A DNA stretch of 57,618 bases, filler included, from an uncultured virus (IMG/VR IMGVR_UViG_2061766007_001532) (lineage: Duplodnaviria > Heunggongvirae > Uroviricota > Caudoviricetes). It is 6 parts of one record of this genome, joined end to end, with 100 filler letters (N's around TTAATTAATTAA, not from the genome) between each part and the next. Parts side by side here need not be neighbours in the genome. Positions count along the whole stretch, not along the records: positions 50,408 to 54,023 come from IMGVR_UViG_2061766007_001532; 5 more parts are not named here. One strand, given 5' to 3'. How positions within the stretch are numbered: the first letter of the stretch is position 1; the number at the start of each line of letters is the position of its first letter. Shown here piece by piece: positions 23,899 through 54,930 of this stretch. A model generated the notes under the pieces. It was not told where the DNA came from. It saw only the letters and a list, made by a program, of their open reading frames with translations, and ran no database searches. Made by a program: the position numbers and the translations under genes.

Positions 23899-26321
23899 TT
23901 ATACGAAAGCACCGTTGCCTATTGCAACACCGCTATCTCTTGCCTGCTTCTGAACAACCTTGAATACTTCCTTGCCGTCTATCATAACTATTGTATCGCC
24001 CTTTGCGTTGATACCTGTCATAGCACTTGCAAAAGCGTTATACATATTGCTCATAAAGTCAGCCATAGCACCCTGATTTGAAGCGGCAATACCGTAACCT
24101 GCATTGCTTCTTGTGTATGCGTTTGCCGTTTCAACTGCTTTGAGCGAGCTTTGAGCCATATCTTTAGCGGCGTTCTCTGCGAGGTATGTGTACCTCTCCA
24201 TATATTGAGCATAACCCATTACGGAAAACATACCTGCTTCTCCGAACTCTTTTGACGGGGACGCGATACCTAATACTCGTTTGAGTGTTTTAAGNNNNNN
24301 NNNNATTTCCTTGCCGTCAATCGTTACGATCACATCGCCGTTGCCTGTGTTTATGCCTGCCATACCGTTCACCACGGCATTGTAGATATTGCTTGCAAGG
24401 TTCATCATCGAGCCTTGATTTGAAGCACCGATACCATAACCGACATTAGTTGATGTATAAGCACCTGTGTTCATCGTAGCCTGTAATGCCGATGTAGCCA
24501 TATTTTGAGCTGCATTTGTAGCAAGGTATGTGTACTTCTTCATATATTCAGCGTAACCCTCAACTGAATACATACCTGCTTCACCAAAAGCTCTCGACGG
24601 AGAGTGAATACCCAAGACCTCTTTCAACTTCTTCAAAGCGTTAGAGGCGATTGTAGCACCTGCCTCTCTTGCCTTTTGGAGATTGGTTTTGTTGTTTACT
24701 CCACCGACGTAGCCTGCGCCACTCTGTTCGCCTGCCGTCTTGAAACCGCTTGTGTATGTTTTCGAACCTGCCGAAGCCTGCGAAGCGATACTCTGACCTG
24801 CGTTATAAGCACTTGCTTTAGTCTTTGTGCTTGCGAGGTTGGAAGTGAACGCATAGGCTTGATTCTGTGCAACATACTTATAACCGCTTACGGCGTTACC
24901 GTTGTTGTTAGCACCGTTTTTACCGCTATTGTAAAGCGTAGTGCCTGCACTCTGAACTTCTCCGTTTTGGCTCTTTAAACCCTCTGCGTATGCCTTTGCG
25001 TATGCTTCACCGAGCTTGCGAGCTTCGTCTGCTGCGGTATTACCCAAAGACGGCTTGANNNNNNNNNNTGATATTTATTGATACCGCCGACATAACCCTG
25101 ACCTGACATTTGACCTGCATAATTGAAGCCGACACGACTATCATTAGCAAGTGATTTTGCACCGTTTGTACCTTGTGCGGCAAGTGTTTTACCGCCCAAG
25201 TTAGCTTCTGACTTTGCTTTTGGAGAAGTCAAACCCATAGCGAACTTATAGGCTTCATTGGCGGCGGTGTTATAGAACANNNNNNNNNNNNNNNNNATCA
25301 GCACCGTTCTTACCACTTGTGTAGAGATTAGAGCCTGCGGTATATACTGATCCTGAACCCGACTTTAAACCCTCGGCGTAGGCTTTAGCGTATGCTTCGC
25401 CCTGCTTTCTTGNNNNNNNNNNNNNNNNNNNNNNNNNNNNNNNNNNNNNNNTACGAACACCGCCGCTTGCACTTCCACCGCCGGACGAATGTACTTTCTG
25501 ACCGTTTGCAACTCTTGTAAAGGCGGCAAGTTCTTTCTCAATATCTTTGCCCGTACCGATCTTATACAATTCCTTGAATACGGGATTGCTATTGACAAAC
25601 TCCGCTAATGCCTTGCCGATTTCTGCGGCGAACTGAACGCCTACCTCGTTACCTGCTTCTGCGGCTCTCCTACCCAAATCTTCGGGAGAACCAAAGAAGT
25701 ATTCCATAATGTTTTCGCTACGGTTCGTAAACGATTCATAGAAAGCAACGCAGAACTGTTCGCCAACCGTCCTTCCATTAGCGGCGGCTTCGATACCCAA
25801 TTCTTCGNNNNNNNNNNNNNNNNNNNNNNNNNNNNNNNGCACCAAGATACAAGATTTTAAGTGATACCTCTAACGGGTGCTTTTTAAGTCTATCTCTTAA
25901 AAGTTCAATGTCTTTTCTTGCTTCTTCAATTCTGTTCTTAATCGCACTTGTTAAGAAGTCATATCCAGGCGTGAGAAGATTTTTGAGGTTAGAGTTTTCA
26001 CCGCTAACTCCGCCGCCGCCTGCACCTGCGCCCGTGTTAGGGTTAAATACATTCAACTCGTCTATGCCAAGCATATAGTCTTTGAGCTTCTTTGCGTTNN
26101 NNNNNNNNTTCGGCGACACTCGATATATCCATTCTGTCGGACATATCGGGCAATTCAAAGCCAAAGAGTGAAGCAAGTGCTCTAAATGCCTCGCCTGCTA
26201 ACTGCGTAAATGCGGTGAGATAAGGCAGTACCTGATTGAGAGCAGGAATGAATACATTACCCAACTCTCTTGAAGTCATAGATAACTGCTCTTTAAACAC
26301 CTTCATTTGGTTAGCAGGATC
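23899..26321 (-). CDS. tape measure protein, central/C-terminal allele fragments
   Basis: DPANQMKVFKEQL...LGIDELNV...LGIHSPSRAFGEAG...IDGKEVFKVVQKQ. Confidence 0.85.
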
Positions 26322-35238: not shown

Positions 35239-35468
35239 AGTCTTATCGCCAACCTTCCTTGTCTTAATTCATCAAGCCTTCTTAACGAGTGTTACGTTAG
35301 CGTAGTCAATCGGCTTATTGTCTGCCTTGAATACGAGAACAACACTTGCCTTTGTGTTTGTGGAAGCTGCAATATCAGCNNNNNNNNNNNNNNNNNNNNN
35401 NNNNNNCAACTTCTGTGTTGGTTGAGTTTGTTTTAAGTTAGTTCTCTCTAACTTTTATAGTTATCGGC

Positions 35469-36137
35469 TTACTTGCCGTCGCTATCTTTTATCGGTATAA
35501 GCCAACAACGACAGTTGTAATGTGCTTTGCCGGGGTATTCGCTCAACAGATAAATCTTGCCGTCGCGAGCCTTACATTCCTCACACACCTTTTCGTCATT
35601 CTCAGCTTTCCACATAACACGCTTGATACCGTTCTTCTTGAATGTATCAATACGAGCTTTGTCAACCATTGTTTCGCCGTATTGCTTTGTCTGTGTATGC
35701 CACAAATCAGCAAAGCGGTGTAACTGCTTATGGTAATCGCTTCTTGAAGCAATCAACAAAGCGGTTATGAGAGCTTCGGCTAACCTCGCCCTCTTTCTGT
35801 CTGCCTCGGCTTTGTAGAGATAACCCGTAACGGGGTTGTATTCTCTCAATATGCCGTCAACATACTTTCCGTCAGGTGCTGTCGGTGATACCTCTAACCC
35901 CAACTCTTTTAAGTCCTCGGCGGCTTCATCAGCCGCACCTTGCGCTATCTTGATGAACTCTCGCCTATTTGATTTCAGCAATCGTTCTATCATTTCTTTT
36001 GTAAGTGATGTTATTCGGGGTGCGTTCAGTTCGTTAAACCCTATAACATCAAGGCGGTTGACCTCTTTCCTTAACTCCGTCGTCAGGATAGCCAACAGTA
36101 AATCAGTCAGTCCGTACCTCGTCGTCCGTTTCTTCAT
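35469..36137 (-). CDS. minor head morphogenesis protein (SPP1 gp7/Mu gpF-like)
   Basis: GIKRVMW.AE.DEKVCEECKARDGKIY....P...HYNCRCW. Confidence 0.85.
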   Translation of the reverse strand: MKKRTTRYGLTDLLLAILTTELRKEVNRLDVIGFNELNAPRITSLTKEMIERLLKSNRREFIKIAQGAADEAAEDLKELGLEVSPTAPDGKYVDGILREYNPVTGYLYKAEADRKRARLAEALITALLIASRSDYHKQLHRFADLWHTQTKQYGETMVDKARIDTFKKNGIKRVMWKAENDEKVCEECKARDGKIYLLSEYPGKAHYNCRCWLIPIKDSDGK

Positions 36138-36349
36138 TGTCGTTTACCCCGTCCTCATTAGGTACGTTTTTCGGCTGCCACTTCTCCAACTGTTCGTTGT
36201 AGTAAATCTCGGAAATGATATAAGCATTTTCGGGATCACTAAACAGACCGCAAGCCTCAAATGCCAATTTCGGGTGTACCTTCTGTGTGTTGAGCATTTC
36301 GCAAAGTGCCTGTGTCTTGACCTGCAAATTCTCGTTATTNNNNNNNNNN

Positions 36350-36553
36350 TTTACTTATCAGATATGCCGCTATTTCAATCTGCACTTCCTCGTACTTTTC
36401 CGGAATTACTTCCGTGCCGTCGCCAAAAGGAAATGCGAGATTGATTACGGCTTTCTCTGCGGCTTTAAGGAATGTGTTAGCAGCATTGGTACTAACATCA
36501 TCATCAAGCATAGTCATTAACTTATTTAACTTTTCTGCGTCTGTCATAGCCAT
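36350..36553 (-). CDS. head-tail connector N-terminal allele
   Basis: MTDAEKL.KL..ML...FLKAAEKAVINLAFPFG; directly after the capsid gene. Confidence 0.7.
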
Positions 36554-36582
36554 AGTGTTGCTAACCTTTCCTTATCGTCTTA

Positions 36583-37762
36583 TCAAGCCTTCTTGACGAG
36601 TGTTACGTTCTGATAGTCAACAGGCTTATCATCAGCCTTGAATACGAGAACGACGCTTGCCTTTGTGTTTGTGGAAGCTGCAATATCAGCACCGCTTGTG
36701 AGGTCTGTGTAAGAAGTAACCGCAGTTCCCCAAGTAGGTGTAACGTCAGTTGTACCGAGCTTGTAAACCCACTTGCANNNNNNNNNNAAGGTCTGTGTAA
36801 GAAGCAACCGCAGTACCCCAAGTAGGTGTAACGTCAGTTGTACCGAGCTTGTAAACCCACTTGCAGTTGATAGGTGCTGCCGGAACTGTAAGGATCGTAC
36901 CGCCAGAAGTTTCACCTGCAACGGAAGTAGCAACGTCAACCGCCTTAACACCGCTTCTCTTTTCGATCTTAACAACTCTGTCCTCTCTCTTGAGGTAAGG
37001 AACTGCGAGGCGTGAAGCATACCAATCTGTTGTTCTTGTGTTAGCGTGTCTTTCGGGTTCAACGAGTACGTTGTCCTCAACTACGTCAACAAGAGCACCA
37101 GGCTTGATGATGTAAGCGTCGCCGCTTGCCGTAAGACGGTTTGTAGGGATAATCTGACAACCCCAAATCTCGCCCGTAGCACCCTTGATTACCTGCTCTG
37201 AACCAATGTCAGAAGCCTTGATGTAATCGTCGTCCTTACGGAGAGCACCGAGATCAGAAGGGGAAACTGTAAGAGCCTTAACGCCCTGCTCGTCCTCACC
37301 GAATACTGTGAGAGCGTCAACGATAAGGTCGGAAGAAAGATCAGAAGTAGAGATATACTTTCTTACATAGGAAATGCCGGAAAGCTCTGTAAGGAAATCT
37401 GCGTCTGTCTTATCGTCGATAGCCTTTGCGAGCTGTGTAGCTGCTTCCTCTGCACAATCAGAATGAGCAGAAAGCAAAGCCTCGTCTGTGATAGCAACGC
37501 CCTTACCGATCTTCTTGACGGTCTTTGTGACCTTGCCCTCGGAAAGATTTGTTGTGCCAATGTCAGCACCCTCGGCTACGTCGCCTGCTGCTCCGATGTA
37601 TGCGAACTTTGTTACTGTGATCGTATCGCCCTCGCCCTTTGCTTCAAGGGTATTGTCAACCTCTGCGAGAGGTGCGAATACTGAATTGTTTGTGAGCTTA
37701 TCCTTGATAGCACCTGCGAGCACTTCGGGGATAATTACATTTGCTTTCATTGTAGTTGCCAT
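36583..37762 (-). CDS. major capsid protein (HK97 fold) with C-terminal extension domain
   Basis: ANVIIPEVLA...FAPLAEVDNTL...GDTIT..KFAYIG.AGDVAEG...KKIGKGV.ITDEA...GEIWGCQI. Confidence 0.9.
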
Positions 37763-37788
37763 AACTCTTTACTCCTTTTGTAAAAGTT

Positions 37789-38055
37789 TTATTTCGAGAG
37801 TTCTTCGTATAACTCCCTGTTGGTTTGATAAAGTTCAGTTCTTTCAGCCATATTCATAGCCTTAAACTGCTCTTTTGTGACGGTCTTTGCTCCTTCATCA
37901 GCCTTTCCGGCAGGTGTCGGAACTGAGGCAGCCGCCTCGCCTTTAGCAATCTTCTTGACATTTTCGATTACGGCTTTCTGATTCTTAAAGACCGTAGCGT
38001 AGTCACCCTTTTCGAGTGCTTCTGCCGTTTCCTGTGCGAGTGCTTCGTCGTAGCC
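37789..38055 (-). CDS. capsid scaffolding protein, C-terminal fragment
   Basis: GYDEALAQETAEAL...TPAGKA...VTKEQFKAM..AER.ELY..N.ELYEEL; immediately upstream of the capsid gene. Confidence 0.8.
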   Translation of the reverse strand, partial: GYDEALAQETAEALEKGDYATVFKNQKAVIENVKKIAKGEAAASVPTPAGKADEGAKTVTKEQFKAMNMAERTELYQTNRELYEELSK

Positions 38056-38428
38056 NNNNNNNNNNAGCGTGTTCTCTCACGACTTAATTTTGCGTTTTTA
38101 ACGAAGTTCTCTCTTCGTGTTTGTGATTTAAGGCTTCTCTGCCTATAATCTCGGCTTATTTGCCGTTATTACCTTTTTCTAACAAGGGTTCTATCCAACA
38201 ACGGCAATTATAGTGAGGCTTTACGGGGATAGCGTTTATCGGGTATATCTTGCCGTCCCTTTCCTTGCACTCGCTACAAGTCTTGTTGTCCTCTTCGGCT
38301 TTCCACATCACACGGNNNNNNNNNNTGTAGTCAGGATCAGCGATTGTGTACTTCTCCAACGCCTCTACTTTCTGTTCGGGTGTCATTTCTGCGTAACCTT
38401 CGATTTTTGATGTGTCAATCTGTGCCAT

Positions 38429-38539
38429 AATTACTCCTTGCGTTTTATTAGCGTGTTCTCTCACGACTGAATTTTGCGTTTTTAACGAAGTTCTCTCTTC
38501 GTGTTTGTGGTTAAAGGCTTCTCTGCCTATAATCTCGGC
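38429..38539 (-). ncRNA. putative cis-regulatory RNA: three AGAGAA-loop hairpins in the scaffold leader
   Basis: AGGC-AGAGAA-GCCT, ACGAAG-AGAGAA-CTTCGT, CGTG-AGAGAA-CACG, then AAGGAG and ATG; other alleles at 35407-35468, 38066-38155, 45074-45180, 50673-50758, 51710-51828. Confidence 0.7.
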
Positions 38540-38834
38540 TTATTTGCCGTTATTACCGTTTTCTTTTAAAGGCTCTATCCAACAACGGCAACGATAATGT
38601 GGCTTTACGGGGATAGCGTTTATCGGGTAAACCTTGCCGTCCCGTTCCTTACATTCTTCACACACTCGGTTATCGTGCTCCGATACCCATTTGACACGCT
38701 TAATGCCGTTCTTCTTGAATGTGTCAAGCCTTGCCTTATCTACCATTGTTTCGCCGTATTGCAGCGTTTGCGTATGCCACAAGTTAGCGAACTTCCGCAG
38801 TTCTTCGTGATAATCGCTCCTACTNNNNNNNNNN

Positions 38835-43705: not shown

Positions 43706-45009
43706 AAAGTTAGGCAAAGAGGTTGATAAGGTAAAACAGACAAAGCCTAAAGAGGCAATCAAGGGAGTTGGCGACGGTGCTAACGAGGCGGCTACGGGTT
43801 TAGATAATTTTTTAGNNNNNNNNNNGCGAGGGTTGCACCCTTGCTCGTACCGTTTGCAAAACACCCGAAAGCCGAGCCGTATCTTGATAAACCTATTCCG
43901 CTTACCGAAGAAGAAGCCGAGAAGGGAAGCAAGCAAGCCGTTGAGAATAAGGGTATCGCTTATATGAAAGCGAAAATGATAGAGATTAANNNNNNNNNNT
44001 GGCGTAACGGGCGACCAAGCGGCTTATATGTCGCAGAATTTGACACAGTTATCTTATGATATTGCGTCGTTCTATAACATCACAAACGAAGAAGCACAGA
44101 ACAAACTCAAATCTGCGATTGCCGGACGATTAGAGCCTATCCGTAAGCTCGGNNNNNNNNNNATAACAGGTTTTGGTGTTGGTGGCGACCAGGCGGCTTA
44201 TATGTCGCAGAACTTGACGCAGTTATCCTATGATATTGCGTCATTCTATAACATCACAAACGAAGAAGCACAGAATAAGATTAAGTCTGCTATTTCCGGC
44301 AGACTTGAACCTATCCGCAAGCTCGGTTGGGACCTATCACAGAGCAAGCTCGTAGATATTGCTAAAAACCCGAAGTATTACGGTCAGCAGACATTCGCTA
44401 TTAACGAACAGACGGGTGCTATCGAGGCGAATACCGTCGCCGTTGATGATAATACACAACACAAGATCGTAAACTTTAANNNNNNNNNNCGCTAAAAACC
44501 CGAAGTATTACGGTCAACAGACATTCGCTATCAACGAACAGACGGGTGCTATTGAGGCTAATACCGTTGCCGTTGATGATAATACACAACACAAGATCGT
44601 AAACTTTAANNNNNNNNNNCTGGGTAATGTATTCATACCTGCAATCAATCAGGTATTGCCTTACTTAACCGCACTTGCACAGTTAGCAGGCGAGGCTTTC
44701 CGTTCACTTGCTTCACTCTTTGGCTTTGAATTGCCCGATATGTCCGACAGAATGNNNNNNNNNNACTCAATCAGGTATTGCCTTACTTGACCGCACTTAC
44801 GCAGTTAGCAGGTGAGGCTTTCCGTTCACTTGCTTCACTCTTTGGCTTTGAGTTGCCTGATATGTCCGACAGAATGGATATATCACCCNNNNNNNNNNAA
44901 AGTTCTTTGGCTTTGAGTTGCCTGATATGTCCGACAGAATGGATATATCACCCGTAGCCGAGCCTTACAACGATGTTGTTCAGGCAACGGGCAGAGCCGC
45001 AGGCAACGC
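43706..45009 (+). CDS. tape measure allele fragments and second tail chaperone piece (43826-43989)
   Basis: MSQNLTQLSYDIASFYNIT...; PFAKHPKAEPYLDKPIPLT. Confidence 0.65.
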
Positions 45010-45161
45010 NNNNNNNNNNCTCGGGTGTCATGTTCTCGTAACCTTCGATCTTTGATGTGTCAATCTGTGCCATAAATTACTCCTTGCGTTTTGTTTGCGT
45101 GTTCTCTCACGACTGAATTTTGTCTTTTAACGACTTCTGTGTCGGTTGAGTTTATTTTGTG

Positions 45162-45710
45162 TTAGTTCTCTCTAACAATATCTTGATTGGCATAACGCCA
45201 TAGATACCCATAAGCCGTGTGGCGATTGCCACGACATACTTCTGTAATACTCCAATCGCTCATTCCCGTTTCGAGAAAAATCGTTCTTGTATTTTCCCAC
45301 TTCTTAATGACGTTCCCGTCCTTATCGAGTTGAATAACCGCAAGCAAATGATTTTTGCCGTTTCCTTTTCTTTCGGGGTGGCGTTCCCTCGAATAACGGG
45401 CATTATAAGAAGCGTCGCACCACTCCAAGTTGTCAACATCGTTGTTTAAGGGGTTTTCGTCTTTGTGGTTTATAAGGTTTAACCCCTCAACCTTTTCGAT
45501 AAAGGCTTCGGCAACAAGGCGGTGAATAAGTTTCTGTTCCTTTATGCCGTTTTTCCTTAACTCAACCCAAGCGTAGCCCTTGTTGTTGACTTTCCAAGTG
45601 AGCATTTTGGCAAAACCCGTTTTATTATAATTAAGGCTGATTACATCACCGCTACTACTAATTAAGTAGCGTCCTTCGTAACCCTTAATTTCCTTCCAAG
45701 CCTTACTCAT
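45162..45710 (-). CDS. NUMOD4/HNH homing endonuclease with NUMOD1-like C-terminus
   Basis: WKEIKGYEGRYLISSSG...HRLVAEAF...INHKDENPLNNDVDNLEWC...I.EVCRG.R.TAYGY.WRY. Confidence 0.9.
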   Translation of the reverse strand: MSKAWKEIKGYEGRYLISSSGDVISLNYNKTGFAKMLTWKVNNKGYAWVELRKNGIKEQKLIHRLVAEAFIEKVEGLNLINHKDENPLNNDVDNLEWCDASYNARYSRERHPERKGNGKNHLLAVIQLDKDGNVIKKWENTRTIFLETGMSDWSITEVCRGNRHTAYGYLWRYANQDIVREN

Positions 45711-46227
45711 TTGCTCTCCTTTCCGTTACTATCTTTTTCAAGCATAGGTTCTATCCAGCAACGGCAATTATAGTGAGGCTTTACGGGGATAGCGTTNNNN
45801 NNNNNNCGTATGCCGTTCTTCTTGAATGTGTCAACTCTTGCCTTATCTACCATTGTTTCGCCGTATTGCAGCGTTTGTGTATGCCACAAATCGGCGAACT
45901 TCCGCAGTTCTTTGTGATAGTCCGCTCTTGACTTAATCAGTAAGGCGGTTATCAACGCTTCTGCGAGCCTCGCCCTCTTTCTGTCGGCTTCGGCATTATA
46001 GAGATAACCCGTAACGGGGTTGTACTCTTTCAACACCTTGTCAACAAACTTTCCGTCGGCACTTATCATCGTAGCCGTAGCCACTCCGAGTGCTTCCAAG
46101 TCCTCGGTTGCTTCTTTAGTCGCTTCCTGGACTATCTTTATGTATTCCCGCTTGTTCGATTTGAGCAAGCGGTCAATCATTTCTCTCGTAAGTCTCGTTA
46201 TTCGGCTTCCCGACAATTCATCGAAGC
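45707..46227 (-). CDS. minor head protein allele
   Basis: EYNPVTGYLY.AEADRKRARLAEAL...HYNCRCW. Confidence 0.75.
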
Positions 46228-46237
46228 NNNNNNNNNN

Positions 46238-48339
46238 GCAGATAAGCCTTATCGTCCTGTAAATATCCTCTTTCGTGATATTTGAGCCGTCGAATGAGTA
46301 TTCTGTTCTTACGGCTTCAACGTCAGCCTTATTATCGTTAGTTGACTTGATCTTGATAGCACCGTACTGACGCAGATTTTCCAATTCTTTATCGTCAAGC
46401 TCGCAGTTGATAAACTTTAAGAATGTCTGAATTGCCTGCTCGATACCGTCAACGTCGTTTGATGTGATTCGGTTATATGCGTCGAGAAGAGGCATTACCG
46501 TTTCAAAAGCTCCGAGCCTTGCGTTGTTTGCCGGGTATTCAAAAATCGGTATCTCGCCTAACGGGTTATTCTTCTCAACGAAGCCTGATAATTTTTCCTT
46601 CTTCTCGTCGCCTAAATTCTCTACTCCGAAAGAGAAAATCTTTGAAGGTGTATATACAACAAAGTTGATGATCGTGCCCGTTGTCTCGCTCTGCGTATAT
46701 GTAACCGCCGCAAGCCTCTTCTTCTTAAAGGTTGAAGAGTAGCCTACAAATGTAGTGCGAGGATCAAGAGTATATAAGTCGTAAGGTGCGTCACCCTTGC
46801 CTACGATTTTAGGATCAAGTGCCTGGACGTATCTGTATGCCGTGCCGCAGATGTGATTCCACTCGATAAGCTCACGATCTAACGCTTCCTTGCCGACCTG
46901 ATTCATGTAGTCGTTGAGGATNNNNNNNNNNTTCACGGTCTAAAGCTTCCTTGCCGACCTGATTCATGTAGTCGTTGAGGATNNNNNNNNNNCGCCAACT
47001 TCGGGTGTACCCTCTGTGTATTGAGCATTTCGCAAAGTGCCTGTGTCTTGACCTGCAAATTCTCGTTATTCGTTCTCTCTGTCTTGACAGTAATATCCGA
47101 TGAACGAATGTCGAGCTTTTCGCCTATCGTTTCCACGATCTTCAAAACGAGTTTGAGCATAAGGCGTTCAGAAGCCTCGAACATCGTTTCGCTTGCTCTC
47201 GCCTTGCTCTCTGTCTTGCTATATCCCGATGAAATCAACATAGCACCGTTATTGGCACTAATTGACTTGCCGTTGCCAGGGACGGGCATACCGCAGATTA
47301 AAAGAATATTTCTGTAAATATCCTCTTTCGTGAGGTTCGCACCGTCAAATGAGTAATCTGTCTTTACCGTATCAACATCGGCAGGTGCGTCTTTGTCAGA
47401 CTTTATCTTGATAGCACCGTACTGTTTCAAGTTTTCCAGAGCGTCGTTATCAAGCTCGCAATTCACGAACTTCAAGAACGACTGAATAATCTGCTCAACT
47501 CCGTCAACATCGTTTGATGTGATTCGGTTAAGAGCGTCGAGTAAGGGCAATACGGTTTCAAAAGCTCCGAGCCTTGCGTTGTTTGCCGGATATTCAAAAA
47601 TCGGTATCTCACCCAAAGCGTTATCGCTCTCAACAAAACCGTCCTTGCTATTGGAGAAGTTTTCGAGAGTATCGAACTTGTTTTGAGCCTTGAATGTAAA
47701 AATCTTTGTCGGGGTATATACGACAAAGCGGATAACCTTACCGTCGGTATCGCTGATAGTGTATGTAACGCCTGCGAGCCTCTTTTTCTTAAAGGTAGAG
47801 GAATAAATTACGAATGTCGTGCGAGGATCAAGTGTATCGAGGTCAAAAGGTGCGTCGCCCTTTTCAACCGTTTTAGGCTCTAATGCCTGCACATAGCGGT
47901 AAGCCGTACCGCAAATGTGATTCCACTCAACGAGGTCTTTATCAAGTCCCTTTTTGCCGACCTGATTCATATATCCGTTAAGGACATTCACGGGGTTAGC
48001 CTTTTCGCCAACCGCAACATAAGTAAAAGGCGTACCCAGGAGATAGGACACCTTAAAATCGACTATATCGTATGCGAGGTTGACTACGACCTTATTGCAG
48101 ATTTCAGGGCGAATCTCTTTCACACGCTCTAAAATAGGCTGCTTGCCTCTGTAATAGTCGTAGAGATAGTTTATGTCGCACCTGTTAGCGATATGTTTAG
48201 GCATAGCGTCGTAGAGAACGCCCATAATGTTTTCGGGTTTAATCTCGTCAACATCGGAATAAATGACACGCCTGCCGAAAAGAGCCTTGCCGTAACCCTT
48301 ATTCGTTGTATCTTTCTTCTCGTTCTCGCCGTCAGCCAT
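46238..48339 (-). CDS. portal protein, SPP1 gp6-like (main allele 46992-48339; second allele 46238-46921; C-termini at 36103-36339 and 50979-51031)
   Basis: YLYDYYRGKQPIL.R.K..RPEICNKVV.NLA..IVDFK.SYL.G.P...GEIPIFEYPANNARLGAFE. Confidence 0.9.
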
Positions 48340-48394
48340 ATCAATACCTCGATTGTAAAGTAAAAAATCGGATAGGTTTACAATTCTCTTATTT

Positions 48395-48448
48395 TCAAAA
48401 TATCAAAATCTTGTGTTTTGTCAACATACGGAATACAAGATGTGGAAT
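48395..48448 (-). promoter_or_regulatory. portal-operon promoter overlapped by tandem NrdR-box-like sites
   Basis: Minus strand TTGACA(48424-48419)-16-TATTTT with an extended TG; 16-mers at 48401-48416 and 48433-48448, 32 bp apart. Confidence 0.55.
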
Positions 48449-48463
48449 TTTCAAATGAAAATA

Positions 48464-48502
48464 CCCTCTACGGAAAAGAACTGACAAAAGAACCGTAGAG
48501 GG
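48464..48502 (-). terminator. hairpin/terminator after terL
   Basis: CCCTCTACGG...CCGTAGAGGG 10-bp stem followed by TATTTTCATTT on the minus strand. Confidence 0.6.
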
Positions 48503-48553
48503 CATTGGTCGGGAATGTGGAGGATAACCCGATGTATTTAGTCTGTTTACACC

Positions 48554-50218
48554 TTACCACGGACGCTTGAATACTTCAACCTTTGCCGAACCGCCACGCT
48601 CGATGAAGTCTGCGACCATAGCAAGGCTATCGGGTGCGTCATCGTGCTTGTTATGTCCCGTAACTCTGAAAGAATAGACATTACACATAAAAGTAATATA
48701 AGGCTTCGACCTTTTGCCCTCGTCCAAGAAGTAAAACTGCCTTATCGTCGGAGCTTTGTCGAATATCCTCATTTCCTTTGCCTGATTATTCGGTGCGGCT
48801 TTGGTGATTATATTTATCTTATGGTTCTTCTTCTCTAAAGCTCGCTCGATTTCCTCGGCATAAGATTTAGTCATTTTATTACATTCTATACGAAGTGCCG
48901 ATACGCCGTGTTCTATGACCTTATCGACTATCAATTTCTGCGTTACGTCCTTTTCGCCGTTATCATAGACCACATCAACGATGTAGATTGAGCCGTCGGT
49001 GTACTGATAACAGACGGGAGCAGCAACGAAGTCGCCACCGCCAAACGCAGGATCGCAGACCATAAACTTACGAACCAACATACTATCATCAGGCAGACCG
49101 CCGTTGTAATAGTTCATATCGGCTGATTCAAATACAGTTCCCTCTCTCTCGATAGGCGAACCCTGATACTGTGCGTTCCAAGAGGCAATATCCTGGTTAT
49201 GGTCAAATGAGGCTCTACGGGAAAGATAGTAAGCGGTATCGAACCCCACGCCGTAATCGTAGTCAAAATTGCTCTCGTCATTCTCGTTTAAGGCAGGGAT
49301 ATTGATTATCTTTCTTCTTATACGCTTATTTTCTTCTCTTTCAAGAACCTCTAACCTCAACCCGATAGGATCGGAATTAGACCACCTTGTACCTTCCCAA
49401 ATGAATTTCGTCTTGCCCTTGCCTCTCGTAACAAGGTTGTTATCTACTATCTGCCAAAGCGAAACCAATCTGTCCTTGTTTATAGCTTCATCAATGCCGG
49501 ACACAAGATCATCAGATATTATCCAACCCGTAGCGTCGCAAGCACCGTTCAAAGTTCCGTGAACAGACCTTGCCGTAACTGACGGATAGTGTTTCTTTCT
49601 TCCTATATCAAATGTCAAGTCCTTACCATTGGTTTTAGGCTCGTCAAAGCCTCTGAATATCTCATTCCAACGGTATGTAACCCTATCGGTTATAACCTCT
49701 AAACAACCGTTATAAAACGCAGTCGTAATCTTGTCGGAATAAGCCGAATACAGATTGCTCATTTCACTATCCTTGCCTGCTTTCCAGGTCATAGCGAAGA
49801 TCATAAGGGTAGATTTGCCTGTTCTCGGCGGTTGGGACAAGAATAATTCGTCTAATTCGTCGTTTTCGAGGCTTTGTATAGCGTCCACAGCGACCTTTAA
49901 GACTTTTCTTCTCGGCAGATAGAACCTCTGTTCGGGTTTTCTGTTCCATTCCAAAGCGATAAGGTAAGAATCGAAGTCAAAAAGAGCCAAAGCGGTAAAA
50001 ATATCCCTGCGAAGCTCGTAAAAATCGCTTGAAATGTCGATATTTCCCTTGACATAAGCCTTGTTTTGTGCCTTTAGACACTCTTTTTCGAGCCATTTAA
50101 GGCTATCGGCATTAGTTTTGGTGTCTTGCAGGCATACATTGTAATAATCTCTGTAATATTTGAACTTATCAGGCTCTTTCTTTATCGCAGAAGCGATCAT
50201 CGGCAGCATATCAGACAT
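48554..50218 (-). CDS. terL: terminase large subunit
   Basis: Walker A SQPPRTGKS, Walker B IISDD, GTRW..DPIG, YQG.P, nuclease CDPAFGGGD...HDDAPDSL. Confidence 0.93.
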   Translation of the reverse strand: MSDMLPMIASAIKKEPDKFKYYRDYYNVCLQDTKTNADSLKWLEKECLKAQNKAYVKGNIDISSDFYELRRDIFTALALFDFDSYLIALEWNRKPEQRFYLPRRKVLKVAVDAIQSLENDELDELFLSQPPRTGKSTLMIFAMTWKAGKDSEMSNLYSAYSDKITTAFYNGCLEVITDRVTYRWNEIFRGFDEPKTNGKDLTFDIGRKKHYPSVTARSVHGTLNGACDATGWIISDDLVSGIDEAINKDRLVSLWQIVDNNLVTRGKGKTKFIWEGTRWSNSDPIGLRLEVLEREENKRIRRKIINIPALNENDESNFDYDYGVGFDTAYYLSRRASFDHNQDIASWNAQYQGSPIEREGTVFESADMNYYNGGLPDDSMLVRKFMVCDPAFGGGDFVAAPVCYQYTDGSIYIVDVVYDNGEKDVTQKLIVDKVIEHGVSALRIECNKMTKSYAEEIERALEKKNHKINIITKAAPNNQAKEMRIFDKAPTIRQFYFLDEGKRSKPYITFMCNVYSFRVTGHNKHDDAPDSLAMVADFIERGGSAKVEVFKRPW

Positions 50219-50221
50219 TAC

Positions 50222-50307
50222 TTACCACCTTCTTCGGCGAATTTGGCGTATTCTGCCCTCAAAGCGTCCTCGTCTATTTCGGGTGCCTGTTCCTGCGTAG
50301 CGGCTTC
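50222..50307 (-). CDS. probable terminase small subunit C-terminus (N-terminus probably 52228-52323)
   Basis: Open frame EAATQEQAPEIDEDALRAEYAKFAEEGGK ending just before terL; position only. Confidence 0.5.
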
Positions 50308-51034
50308 NNNNNNNNNNNNNNNNNNNNNNNNNNNNNNNNNNNNNNNNNNNNTTAATTAATTAANNNNNNNNNNNNNNNNNNNNNNNNNNNNNNNNNNNNN
50401 NNNNNNNGTCCTGTCCGTCCGTGCGGTTAGCCTCTGCTAATTCGGTATAATTTATATTATGGTGAATACAATTTAATGAGATAAAGAGCCTGCAAATGCA
50501 ATAAAATCAAGGGTTTTGGGGTTTTTAAGGGATATAATGCTATTCGGTATAATTCCACTATGAATAATTNNNNNNNNNNGGTTTTTAAGGTAAATAATGC
50601 TATTCGGTATAATTCCACTATGAATAATTATGCGGTCTTTATGNNNNNNNNNNNNNNNNNNNNNNNNNNNNNCAAAACAAACTCACCCGACACAGAAGTC
50701 GTTAAAAGTCAAAATCTGAACCGACACAGAAGTCGTTAAAAGGCAAGGAGAAAAACTTATGGCAAACATCGACACATCAACAATCGAAGGTTACGAGAGT
50801 ATGACCGCCGAGGAAAAGGTCAAGGCACTTGAATCATTCAATATGCCTGATCCTGACTATTCGGGTTACATCAAAAAGGACACATTCGATAAGACCGCTT
50901 CTGAACTCGCACAGGTCAAAAAGGACTTAAAAGCGAGAATGTCAGAGGAAGAAGTCAAAGAGAAAGAGNNNNNNNNNNGCAGTTGGAAAAGTGGGAAGTG
51001 AAAGACAACCCCGAAGAAGATAAGGCGGTAAACA

Positions 51035-51709
51035 ATGGCGAGGAAAACGGAGAAGTACGAACTGACGGACATAATAATCGCCCTGTTACTGAATGAACTT
51101 CGCAGGGAGATAAACCGCCTCGATGTTATGGGGTTCGATATGCTGAACGCACCTAACATCACCAAATACACTAAAGAGCTTGTATCAAGGCTTTTGAAGT
51201 CTAACAAGAGAGAGTATTTGAAGATTGCTAAAGAGGCAACCGACGAGGCGAAAGAGGATATTGAGGCTTTGGGCGTGGCGGCAACGCCTTTAGTCATAGA
51301 CGGGAAGTATGTTGATGAAGTTCTTGGGGAATACAACCCCGTAACGAACTATCTGTACTATCCCGAAGCGGAAAGAAAAAGGTCAAGGCTCGCAGAGGCT
51401 TTGATTACGGCGATGGTAGTAAGCAGCCGAGCAGACTATCACAAACAGTTAAGAAAGTTTGCTGATTTGTGGCATACACAGACAAAGCAATACGGCGAAA
51501 AAATGGTTGACAAGACACGCATAAATACTTTCAAGAAGAACGGTATCAAGCGTGTCAAGTGGGTTACAAAAGAGGACGAAAAGGTATGTAAAGAGTGTGC
51601 CGAGAGGGACGGAAAGATTTACCCAATCGACAAGATACCTGATAAACCGCATTACAACTGTCGTTGTTGGATAGTGCCTCTTTTAGAAAAAGGTAATAAC
51701 GGCAAATAA
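51035..51709 (+). CDS. minor head morphogenesis protein allele
   Basis: GIKRVKWVT..DEKVCKECAERDGKIYP...PHYNCRCW. Confidence 0.85.
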   Translation: MARKTEKYELTDIIIALLLNELRREINRLDVMGFDMLNAPNITKYTKELVSRLLKSNKREYLKIAKEATDEAKEDIEALGVAATPLVIDGKYVDEVLGEYNPVTNYLYYPEAERKRSRLAEALITAMVVSSRADYHKQLRKFADLWHTQTKQYGEKMVDKTRINTFKKNGIKRVKWVTKEDEKVCKECAERDGKIYPIDKIPDKPHYNCRCWIVPLLEKGNNGK

Positions 51710-51828
51710 GCCGAGATTATACGTTAGAGAGAACTAACGATAAATAAACCCAAACGGAGAGAGAACTTCGCAACAAACCCAAAATTTTAGTGTGAGAGAA
51801 CACGATAAAACCCAAAGGAGAAAACATT
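51710..51828 (+). ncRNA. putative cis-regulatory RNA, three AGAGAA-loop hairpins (complete allele)
   Basis: CGTTAG-AGAGAA-CTAACG (51722-39), CGGAG-AGAGAA-CTTCG (51755-70), TGTG-AGAGAA-CACG (51791-804), RBS at 51815. Confidence 0.7.
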
Positions 51829-52217
51829 ATGGCAAACATCGACACATCAACAATCGAAGGTTACGCAGAAATGACCGCCGAGCAGAAAGTAGAGGCTCTG
51901 GAAAAGTACGCTTTCGCTGATCCCGATTATTCGGGTTATGTAAAGAAAGAAGTATTTGACAAAAAGGCTTCGGAGGCTGCAAAGCTCGAAAAGGACTTAA
52001 AAGCGAGAATGTCAGAGGAAGAAGTCAAAGAGAAAGAGAGAGCCGAGGAATTGGAAAAGTACAAGACCGAGGCAGAATCTTTACGCAGAGAGAAGAATAT
52101 CGCTAACAACAAGGCACAGTTCATTACCGCAGGCTTTGATGAAGCACTTGCACAGGAAACGGCAGAGGCACTTGAAAAAGGCGATTTCGCTACGGTCTTT
52201 AAGAATCAGAAAACCGT
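51829..52217 (+). CDS. capsid scaffolding protein (N-terminal part; allele at 50759-50968)
   Basis: IDTS.IEGYAEMTAEQKVEALE....DPDYSGYVKKE.FDKKASE. Confidence 0.8.
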
Positions 52218-52324: not shown

Positions 52325-52705
52325 TTACTTACCTACTTTCACTAACTTTTTCTTATATTTCTTCGGCACACGATAGACCTTACCCGTATATTCGTCCCTA
52401 CGGAGCTTATGTATGCCCTTAAATTCTCTCGGAAGTATCTCGCCCTTATTAGTTCCGACAAGGTAAATGCTCTGCATACCTTTAGGCGGTTTAGGGTTAT
52501 ACACGATCACCTGATAGCCAAACGCTTTAGCCACCCTATACAGTAACCCTACGCCTACGTCCCTACGCTTCATCACCCTTGCGGTATCAAGCGTGTATGT
52601 CAGCCCGATACGAGCCGAAAATTCCTCGCAACTCTCGTATTCGGGACGCTGATTGATGAAGTTTGCCACTATGTATTGTGCTCTTACGCCTTTTCCTCTT
52701 GCCAT
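52325..52705 (-). CDS. basic HTH-like protein upstream of the terminase genes
   Basis: SCEEFSARIG...RRDVGVGLLYRVAKAFGYQVIV resembles an XRE fold. Confidence 0.5.
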   Translation of the reverse strand: MARGKGVRAQYIVANFINQRPEYESCEEFSARIGLTYTLDTARVMKRRDVGVGLLYRVAKAFGYQVIVYNPKPPKGMQSIYLVGTNKGEILPREFKGIHKLRRDEYTGKVYRVPKKYKKKLVKVGK

Positions 52706-54122: not shown

Positions 54123-54930
54123 NATAATAATCTAAATAATCACGCCTAAAACGGATATATATACCTCTTTGATTTCTATCTGCTTTGTTCTGTACTGCTT
54201 TTGCGGTTTTCAAGGCTGCTGCTATTGCCTTTTTATCTTTAATTGTTGCGACGTTTGACACCTTGTAATTGTTTACAAAAATTGCGTCCATATTTACATA
54301 TTGACCTGCTAACTTCCTAACAAACATTGTTAGTCCGCTTTCGTCCTCTAACCTCAAATAATTATTGCCTGCGTATATTTCCACGTTGCCCTTAAAACCG
54401 TATGCGGCGACGGCTGCCGACAATAACAAGCCGTTGACCTTTTCAAAGTCGTTCAAAGCGTCCTCATTTAACATCGGGATTCTTTTGCGGTATGCCCTGA
54501 AGCCGTCGCAGCTTTCGAGCTTGCCGCCTGGCGTCAAGTGTAAACCTGTTAAAACTGCGCGGCTGCCGTCCTTGCTTGCGGTGTATGCTGCCGCTTTGAG
54601 ATCGTCGGCAGGTATTTCACAAACTTTTGTAAAGTCCTCAACGGGTAAATTATAAAAGTCCTGGCAATTTTCGGGTAATTCGCTGCCGCCTTTAAAAATG
54701 CCCGTGTCGGCTGCAAGTGTCAAGGCGTCCTTTGTATAGACTTTGTTCTGTGCCTCTAATGCCTCAACGATTCCGGCAACAAAAATATAAATATCGGCGT
54801 TGTGATCCATAGAACGTGCAATCAAATTGCCGTTATTGTCGGCGTATGCCCTTTCAAATGCCGAAAAGCTGCTCTTGTTTGCAAGTGCCTTCTTAACCTG
54901 GTTAATAAGATTCTTTACTGTGTTCTTCAT
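54123..54930 (-). CDS. divergent DNA polymerase III beta-clamp-like protein (truncated by scaffold end)
   Basis: ASKDGSRAVLTGLHL...LESCDGFR and MFVRKLAGQYVNMDAIF resemble DnaN S.DE.RP.LTG...ATDG.RL and RL.EG.FP.Y motifs. Confidence 0.6.

Follow-up and report, generated by a model that had tools for sequence, protein, structure and literature searches.

The leader of the scaffold gene in a group of tailed phages carries a row of short hairpins that share one hexamer loop while their stems vary. We identified this array in a stretch of 57,618 nucleotides (hereafter the window) from an uncultured Caudoviricetes virus (IMG/VR IMGVR_UViG_2061766007_001532), and found it to be a real, strongly supported and uncatalogued RNA motif family with a precise genomic place. 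The phages and prophages that carry it are siphovirus-like, have gut and rumen Clostridia as hosts and form a large clade. We favor, with about even confidence, the reading that the array is a cis-acting RNA leader operator that would set the translation, and with it the stability, of the scaffold-capsid message.

An initial annotation, made from the window alone, had described hairpins with an A[GC]AGAA loop in six copies of this leader. Hairpins are indeed present in all six, three in each of four copies and two in the copies at 50673 and 35407, both cut by an N-gap (Table 1), and every stem quoted in that annotation is exact. In the flagged copy (51710-51828) the loops lie 32 and 35 nt apart, and the last stem ends ~10 nt before the ribosome-binding site (RBS) AAGGAG of the gene starting at ATG 51829, as had been claimed. 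The hexamer as such is common: A[GC]AGAA occurs 106 times in the window (29 on the plus and 77 on the minus strand). At least four complementary flanking bases are found at 20 of these 106 sites, 16 of which lie in the six leaders, three in an unrelated 11-bp hairpin and one in the terminase gene (48827-48840, minus), where it is a chance site. Two models built from other phages gave the same picture. The unit model (R1), made from 150 of 244 distinct units with none from the window, yielded ten window matches at an expectation value (E) below 0.01, all within leaders; a weaker R1 match at 54197-54233 (E 0.11) was rejected, the loop motif being absent there. The full-leader covariance model (R2), made from 67 leaders of other phages, picks out exactly the six leader copies, with E from 2e-15 to 4e-4 and the next match at E 0.66. 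The fold of 51700-51835 has z = -3.78 on the sense strand, with 0 of 200 shuffles as good, and z = -2.11 on the antisense strand.

We examined covariation at 150 of 186 distinct AGAGAA leader sites, which were taken regardless of their flanks, so that pairing was not selected for. The inner four pairs show standard pairing in 143, 141, 142 and 123 of the 150 sites, with changes on both sides in 52, 86, 37 and 79. Positions 5 and 6 are paired in 51 and 56 of the 150, near the level of the slid-partner control (28-38% of cells paired). The covariation score of 0.712 compares with 0.182 for shuffles, none of 500 of which reached it, and with at most 0.158 for slid partners. Likewise, RNAalifold on a MAFFT alignment of 67 diverse leaders returned three hairpins and nothing else, with compensatory changes in 11 of 11 pairs. 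Because the loop and the 3' flank are fixed while the stems covary freely, these data support selection for a fold of single-stranded nucleic acid rather than for a site in duplex DNA. The initial annotation had based selection on RNA structure on compensatory and G-U changes together. The first of these stands strongly; G-U pairs, 15 as against 10 A-C among the 600 cells of the inner four pairs, settle neither RNA versus DNA nor the strand. A DNA-level element, in which extruded single-strand hairpins or cruciforms would serve a promoter, replication or packaging, could draw on this lack of a clear G-U excess, on the fact that pairing of variable sequence is equally possible in single-stranded DNA, and on the A/T-rich TATA-like boxes that flank the small hairpin preceding the array (hairpin 0). 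We nevertheless regard such an element as highly improbable, since the units keep a set register with the Shine-Dalgarno (SD) sequence and the start codon, are always oriented sense to the gene, neighbor hairpins with GNRA and UUCG-type loops typical of RNA, and have stems too short for stable cruciforms. Furthermore, a simple sigma-70 scan found no sense-strand promoter between the array and the terminator that precedes it in some phages (see below).

Relatives of the leader were collected through the protein encoded behind it. With the scaffold protein fragment of the window as query we obtained 14 IMG/VR loci, and an alignment of eight scaffold proteins, used to search bacterial genomes and viruses, added 58 loci in bacterial genomes and 80 further viral loci. 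The bacterial carriers are mostly Clostridia, many of them metagenome-assembled, and include Oscillospiraceae, Acutalibacteraceae, Lachnospiraceae, Faecalibacterium, Ruminococcus, Dorea and Flavonifractor. The array is kept before the homologous scaffold gene down to ~30% protein identity to the query. In the cultured-phage collection only one distant relative of the scaffold protein was found (MT835537, 40% identity), and it is unannotated. A complete 44.5-kb relative with terminal repeats has the gene order terminase, portal, leader, scaffold, major head protein, adaptor; this genome, G005, also carries a diversity-generating retroelement (L393:802-2687), consisting of an Avd-like protein and a reverse transcriptase, after its tail genes. 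Two or more hairpins are present in 125 of 128 distinct leaders (three in 88, two in 34, four in 3), and 3 leaders have one. When every six-base loop closed by 4 bp or more was tallied without bias in the 180 nt before the start codon of 126 distinct leaders, AGAGAA (212), ACAGAA (24), AGTGAA (21) and GGAGAT (18) came first, and the most frequent loop outside the variants of the motif was AACAGG, seen 12 times.

The anatomy of the unit was counted on 353 hairpins from 129 distinct leaders. The loop is AGAGAA in 249, ACAGAA in 29, AGTGAA in 23, GGAGAT in 18, AGACAA and AGGGAA in 10 each, GGAGAA and AGAAAA in 6 each, and another sequence in 2. Stems have 4 bp in 217 hairpins, 5 bp in 71, 3 bp in 41, 6 bp in 21 and more in 3, and 126 different stems occur among the 353; the closing pair is C-G in 216, G-C in 94 and U-A in 37. 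Stem length is held fixed and not maximised, and the four-pair hairpins are weak (median -2.6 kcal/mol, n=161). On the 3' side each unit continues into a tail, (U/A)(A/U)AA(A/U) followed by CGCA(A), with A at 84-86% at flank positions 3-4. Loop-to-loop distances are mostly 25-35 nt. In 89 of 128 leaders, 9-12 nt separate the end of the last stem from the first SD-like tetramer; the distance from that stem end to the ATG is most often 23-24 nt.

Loop and tail change together. AGAGAA is combined with a CNCA tail in 210 of 296 units and ACAGAA with a GNCA tail in 18 of 18; for AGACAA or AGAAAA the tail is CAGA or CGGA in 15 of 15. The coupled swaps are complementary, with loop base 2 matching tail base 1 and loop base 4 matching tail base 3 (G/C), in parallel register. 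The same coupling can be seen inside the window by comparing 50688-50716 with 51791-51819. An H-type pseudoknot between the loop and the CGCA tail was considered and rejected, as the coupled changes fit a parallel register only and not an ordinary antiparallel helix. The independent events are few, and the coupling may simply stem from whole units having been inherited together. Base pairing between the loop and the 3' end of 16S ribosomal RNA was likewise dismissed: the ACAGAA and AGTGAA variants would break it.

The array is confined to one place in the genome. At 234 of 291 leader sites AGAGAA is framed by a stem of at least 4 bp; outside the leader the same is true of 3 of 281 sense-strand sites and 2 of 126 antisense ones. 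A count over 139 non-identical loci (679 kb) placed 311 hairpins in the 200 nt that precede the scaffold ATG, 19 elsewhere on the same strand and 7 on the other strand. In five phage records of 34-55 kb, 11 of the 13 R1 matches at E <=1 fall in the scaffold leader, and one of the other two proved false on inspection. The weak matches in phage records include G001:C1:25973 (E 0.69). Two extra model matches, G008:C1:441742 and G002:C1:6340, proved on inspection not to be hairpin arrays. There is one array site per genome, at the scaffold gene.

The same result was reached without reference to any protein. We scanned IMG/VR for three CAGAGAAG words spaced 17-27 nt apart and obtained at least 150 matches in at least 119 loci. 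Among the 150 matches listed, 75 have two or more loops with stems of 4 bp or longer, and the remaining 75 are for the most part stemless tandem repeats, apparently coding. All 33 distinct open reading frames (ORFs) of at least 150 aa that stand behind arrays among the matches listed form one BLASTP cluster, with widely different N-termini. Sixteen members of the scaffold family, 12 of them from pattern-scan ORFs among the matches listed, were compared with head scaffolding PHROGs, and 8 match PHROG 172 and/or 2932. These include L001, the nearest relative of the window scaffold protein (70% identity), which matches phrog_172, head scaffolding protein, at E 2.1e-6. A looser pattern, AGAGAA three times, gave two or more stemmed loops in only 5 of the 118 loci listed and was dropped in favor of the tighter one. 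The positional link to scaffold genes on which the initial annotation relied is tight, and holds in these protein-blind searches too.

We also examined five host genomes, in which the significant unit matches are prophage leaders only; one of these hosts, with leader loops AGGGAA and AAGGAA, gave no significant unit match. The five genomes hold no further strong copies of the unit, so that no host regulon is visible. This speaks against the idea that a general RNA chaperone or regulator of the host, such as Hfq or CsrA, binds the loops, which we consider very unlikely. The array does resemble CsrA- and RsmA-bound leaders in having several short hairpins with the same loop and the last site beside the SD. 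Unlike those leaders, it lacks the defining GGA in 318 of 353 loops, GGA being present in 35 only (GGAGAT 18, AGGGAA 10, GGAGAA 6, AGGAAA 1), and has no unit copies in the host. As to Hfq, PMC3287200 reports that the Bacillus subtilis protein selects and binds (AG)3A on its distal face, and AGAGAA, the loop of 249 of the 353 hairpins, is an AG-repeat. Hfq (PF17209) was found in two of the five host genomes with an array-bearing prophage, genomes whose completeness is not given, and was not found in a 2.7-Mb isolate genome. Hfq is thus unlikely as the reader.

The initial annotation could assign the array to no known RNA family, and none of Rfam 15 matches it. At the gathering threshold, the 4227 models of Rfam 15 gave no match in the whole window. 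In 51600-51900 the only hit was a chance antisense one to BtsR1, with 13.3 bits versus a threshold of 66 and E 4.5, and in eight diverse related loci (E <=1) the only hit was a tRNA. The PyrR binding site (RF00515), to whose loops those of the array can be likened, is unmatched in the window leader (E <=10) and in the eight related loci (E <=1). No description of the motif was found in full-text searches or in term searches of the main texts, supplements apart, of surveys of 104 and 224 motifs. PMC10914365 reports a conserved noncoding RNA candidate, derived from the 5' untranslated region, before the major head gene of Pseudomonas phage YuA; like the array it lies 5' of head genes, in a different phage group and host, and the likeness is one of position. 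The array also differs from an intrinsic terminator or attenuator in that its 3' flank is A-rich, with U at no more than 8% at positions 3-4.

Antitermination was another role that the initial annotation had raised. The nut sites of lambda and P22 consist of boxA and a boxB hairpin that is read by N, and boxB loops fold in a GNRA-like manner. The hairpins of the array, likewise, have free stems and a fixed purine-rich loop that may be GNRA-like: judged by sequence only, N-GNRA-N is readable in 312 of the 353 loops (AGAGAA, AGTGAA, AGGGAA, AGAAAA, GGAGAT and GGAGAA) and not in the other 41 (ACAGAA, AGACAA and others). The array moreover opens the structural operon, in many cases directly behind a terminator, where nut/boxB-like or put-like sites could allow read-through of the terminators of that operon. 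In other respects the two differ. The array has a hexaloop, two to four copies, and its conserved linear part 3' of the hairpin and not 5'; in the 14 positions 5' of the array stem no base exceeds 63%, and no boxA-like element was seen there. Whereas nut sites follow an early promoter and lie ahead of terminators, the array keeps its register with the SD and belongs to the late head module, where the portal or minor head gene precedes it and the scaffold gene follows. The terminators seen are upstream of the array, beyond its action, and in the complete relative the scaffold, capsid and adaptor genes are 14-16 nt apart, which leaves no room for a terminator. No N-like protein is known for these phages, although no search aimed at N-type proteins was made. 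The set distance to the RBS points to translation, and antitermination, a poor fit to this distance, to the missing 5' element and to the late head module, is in our view unlikely.

We next consider what precedes hairpin 1, where three kinds of context are found. In the first, the end of a minor head, portal or HNH gene is followed by a small G+C-rich hairpin and an A/T-rich spacer such as TTGATATA. In relatives this small hairpin usually lies 6-9 nt before hairpin 1 and has a GNRA loop in 30 of 112 cases and a TTCG loop in 5 of 112; in the window it is hairpin 0, which recurs on the minus strand in three of the other copies. At the positions from -8 to -2 relative to hairpin 1, 84-89% of the bases are A or T. 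In the second kind there is a T-run terminator, of two conserved types, sometimes abutting hairpin 1. One type is a long GGGCTATGAG...CTTGTAGCCC stem with a T-run and the other a nested AACGCCA...CCGAG-loop-CTCGG...TGGCGTT stem with a T-run, both in the 40-75 nt before hairpin 1; listed carriers of the two types include L046:2335-2378, L051, L119, L025, L028, L040 and L068. Both structures are conserved in sequence across distant phages, which is unusual for plain terminators. In the window, no sense-strand terminator was called in 51000-52217. In the third kind 2-5 nt separate the end of a tRNA or tRNA-like gene from hairpin 1. Examples are a tRNA-Met at L031:237-311 and tRNA or tRNA-like genes at L033:3-77 and L145:1346-1420; cases of tRNA or T-arm type also occur in L026, L049 and L116, and the T-arm-like sequences are not called by ARAGORN.

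This upstream anatomy suggests that the working message starts just before hairpin 1, by initiation or by cleavage. Contigs from four bovine-gut RNA libraries span the leader and the start of the gene, one of them identical over 51711-51875, which places the stretch in RNA libraries and is not proof of transcription. At a depth of 2-5, these contigs do not cover 51105-51608, most of the upstream gene. Two of them, from two studies, start at 51705 and 51711, 6 nt apart; we draw no 5' end from them.

It is possible, though on balance we think it improbable, that the array is a messenger RNA processing site and 5' stabiliser without a dedicated reader. A cut in the A/U-rich spacer before hairpin 1, or release by tRNA processing, would give the scaffold-capsid segment a longer life and an open RBS. 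The cggR-gapA message of Bacillus is processed by RNase Y, and 5' stabiliser stem-loops occur in Firmicute operons. Like these, the array has a structured element, an A/U-rich spacer and a hairpin at the start of highly expressed distal genes, the structured element being either the G+C-rich hairpin or the T-run terminator. The tRNA and tRNA-like genes that end so close to hairpin 1 (L031, L145) fit the same scheme, and it is hairpin 1 that tends toward the longest stem. Furthermore, the leader is 43.5% A and 15.5% U, and being A-rich and U-poor it leaves the purine-rich SD without a pairing partner. In contrast to the array, stabilisers of the cggR-gapA type need no fixed loop, tail or repeated units. 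Stability alone does not account for one fixed hexamer loop, a fixed 3' tail and a stem of exactly four pairs, and stems of ~-2.6 kcal/mol are poor roadblocks. A processing or 5'-stabiliser role may also exist together with an operator role.

The anatomy of the array leads us to propose, as the operator reading has it, a protein reader, multivalent binding and control of the scaffold/capsid stoichiometry. The units read as docking sites because the loop is one hexamer, the tail is fixed, the stem has a fixed length and free sequence, stability is marginal, the pitch is regular, the row is in register with the SD and each genome has one site. Such a combination of fixed loop and tail, fixed stem length, weakness and repetition is not expected from selection for stability or insulation alone. 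Each unit, with its four-pair free stem, fixed hexaloop and A-run plus CGCA tail, would dock one sequence-specific RNA-binding factor, and most of the loops can be read as four-base turns of GNRA type with an A on either side. Two to four units would present such sites every 25-35 nt, with the tail of the last running into the SD. Through the occupancy of the row, and chiefly of its last site, the factor would then govern both the rate of translation initiation at the scaffold gene and the lifetime of the message. Scaffold and major capsid, the two most abundant head proteins, would in this way be adjusted independently of the upstream portal and minor head genes, whose products are needed in few copies. 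Most likely the phage itself would encode the factor, which might repress or activate and could be the scaffold or capsid protein, acting on the message it is made from.

The hairpins bound by T4 gp43 and RegA and by MS2-type coat proteins are autogenous translational operators of phages. As in these, array hairpins with a sequence-specific loop adjoin the RBS of a phage gene, here the structural gene for the scaffold; the location is that of an operator, with the array beside the scaffold RBS, at a set distance to the SD and at one site per genome. Unlike them, the array strings together two to four similar units, each ending in a fixed single-stranded tail, and is known here from sequence. 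Several points weigh against an operator of this kind. Among the 62 ORFs of the complete 44.5-kb relative no RNA-binding protein is recognisable, though 25 of them are without a family. The scaffold proteins behind the array differ strongly at their N-termini, so that the scaffold could be the reader only via its shared core. Since G-U pairs are barely above A-C, the strand is argued from orientation and register with the gene and not from wobble pairs. Finally, the sequences come from related phages and many of the counts are not independent events, though the stems differ widely.

The P22 scaffolding protein is reportedly autoregulated post-transcriptionally, its product limiting its own synthesis, in work credited to Wyckoff and Casjens in 1985; to our knowledge no RNA target is known for this regulation. 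We tentatively extend the operator reading, while considering the extension rather improbable, to the proposal that free scaffold (or capsid) protein throttles its own message via the array. The array would then be the kind of target never defined for P22, and a lineage version of a general tailed-phage rule, by which the messages of head genes would bear rows of hairpins whose fixed loop is particular to the lineage, with a co-evolving head-protein reader. If so, the coupling of loop bases 2 and 4 with two tail bases would correspond to a small tertiary fold or a two-part contact in each unit.

The 57.6-kb window is a patchwork of 120 fragments with N runs between them. Of these, 29 match a related phage record at 66-89% identity, and many fall on the same 6 kb of the 34-kb IMG/VR record G001, in both orientations. 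Judged by sequence, a single phage type contributes several diverged alleles of its head module to the record, and since so many fragments map onto the same 6 kb the six leader copies are best read as strain or species variants assembled together. Examples of the patchwork are 35407-38549, 45020-50307 and 50673-52217. Genes and leaders are listed in Table 1; in relatives the scaffold gene precedes the major head protein gene. The ORF at 52325-52705, suggested in the initial annotation as a partner of the leader, has no family match and sits in another assembly fragment than the flagged leader, one that maps elsewhere on the related phage. In one allele only, the leader is separated from the portal region by an inserted HNH/NUMOD4 homing-endonuclease gene, the last codons of which run into hairpin 1. 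Three copies of a perfect 11-bp hairpin, its loop being ACAGAA, occur with near-identical flanks (44858-44885, plus; 44923-44950, plus; 26121-26148, minus); these are unrelated to the leader array and probably represent one gene segment in three allelic fragments. Likewise, a stretch of ~50 nt (GGTTTTTAAGG...ATGAATAATT) occurs twice in 50520-50643, on either side of the N-gap 50570-50579 and with 2-3 differences, and probably stands for two alleles of one intergenic piece.

Table 1. Scaffold leaders and neighboring genes in the window. Positions count from the first letter of the window.
Feature	Position	Strand	Details
Flagged leader, hairpin 0, CGGC-AAATAA-GCCG	51700-51713	plus	4-bp stem; spans the stop codon of the upstream gene
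Flagged leader, A/U-rich spacer AGATTATA before hairpin 1	51714-51721	plus	TTGATATA-like spacers in relatives
Flagged leader, hairpin 1, CGTTAG-AGAGAA-CTAACG	51722-51739	plus	R1 E 0.3
Flagged leader, hairpin 2, CGGAG-AGAGAA-CTTCG	51755-51770	plus	one G-U pair; R1 E 0.007
Flagged leader, hairpin 3, TGTG-AGAGAA-CACG	51791-51804	plus	one U-G pair; followed by ATAAAACCCA and the SD; R1 E 2.5e-4
SD AAGGAG and scaffold ATG (51829-51831)	51815-51831	plus	
Leader copy, 5' side cut by N-gap	50673-50761	plus	CGAC-ACAGAA-GTCG at 50688-50701 and 50722-50735; SD and ATG 50745-50761; R2 E 3.3e-8
Leader copy, three hairpins	45071-45187	minus	hairpins 45160-45177, 45131-45144, 45098-45111; SD and ATG 45071-45085; HNH gene upstream; R2 E 1.4e-12
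Leader copy, hairpin 0 and three hairpins	38426-38549	minus	hairpin 0 38536-38549; hairpins 38515-38528, 38485-38502, 38452-38465; SD and ATG 38426-38439; R2 E 2.2e-15
Leader copy, hairpin 0 and three hairpins	38066-38165	minus	hairpin 0 38152-38165; hairpins 38131-38144, 38101-38118, 38068-38081; N-gap 38056-38065 cuts before the SD; R2 E 4e-10
Leader copy, hairpin 0 and two hairpins	35407-35478	minus	hairpin 0 35465-35478; hairpins 35435-35454, 35407-35420; cut by N-gap 35380-35406; R2 E 3.7e-4
Scaffold protein gene, 5' part	51829-52217	plus	ends at N-gap 52218
Minor head protein, Mu F-like C-terminal domain	51035-51709	plus	Pfam PF04233, E 1.1e-7; PHROG minor head/head morphogenesis families
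Minor head protein, Mu F-like end	35469-36137	minus	
Major head protein	36788-37762	minus	
HNH endonuclease	45162-45710	minus	
Portal	46933-48339	minus	
Large terminase	48554-50218	minus	

The array is kept across phages whose scaffold proteins are only ~30% identical, once per genome and exactly at the boundary between low-copy and high-copy genes, and it occurs in prophages of cultured gut Clostridia. It would be a new family for RNA catalogues. Each particle takes hundreds of copies of scaffold and major capsid but few of the portal, terminase and minor head proteins, and how tailed phages set that ratio within one late transcript is largely unexplained. The array is a defined and easily mutated RNA signal that makes the question of this ratio directly testable.

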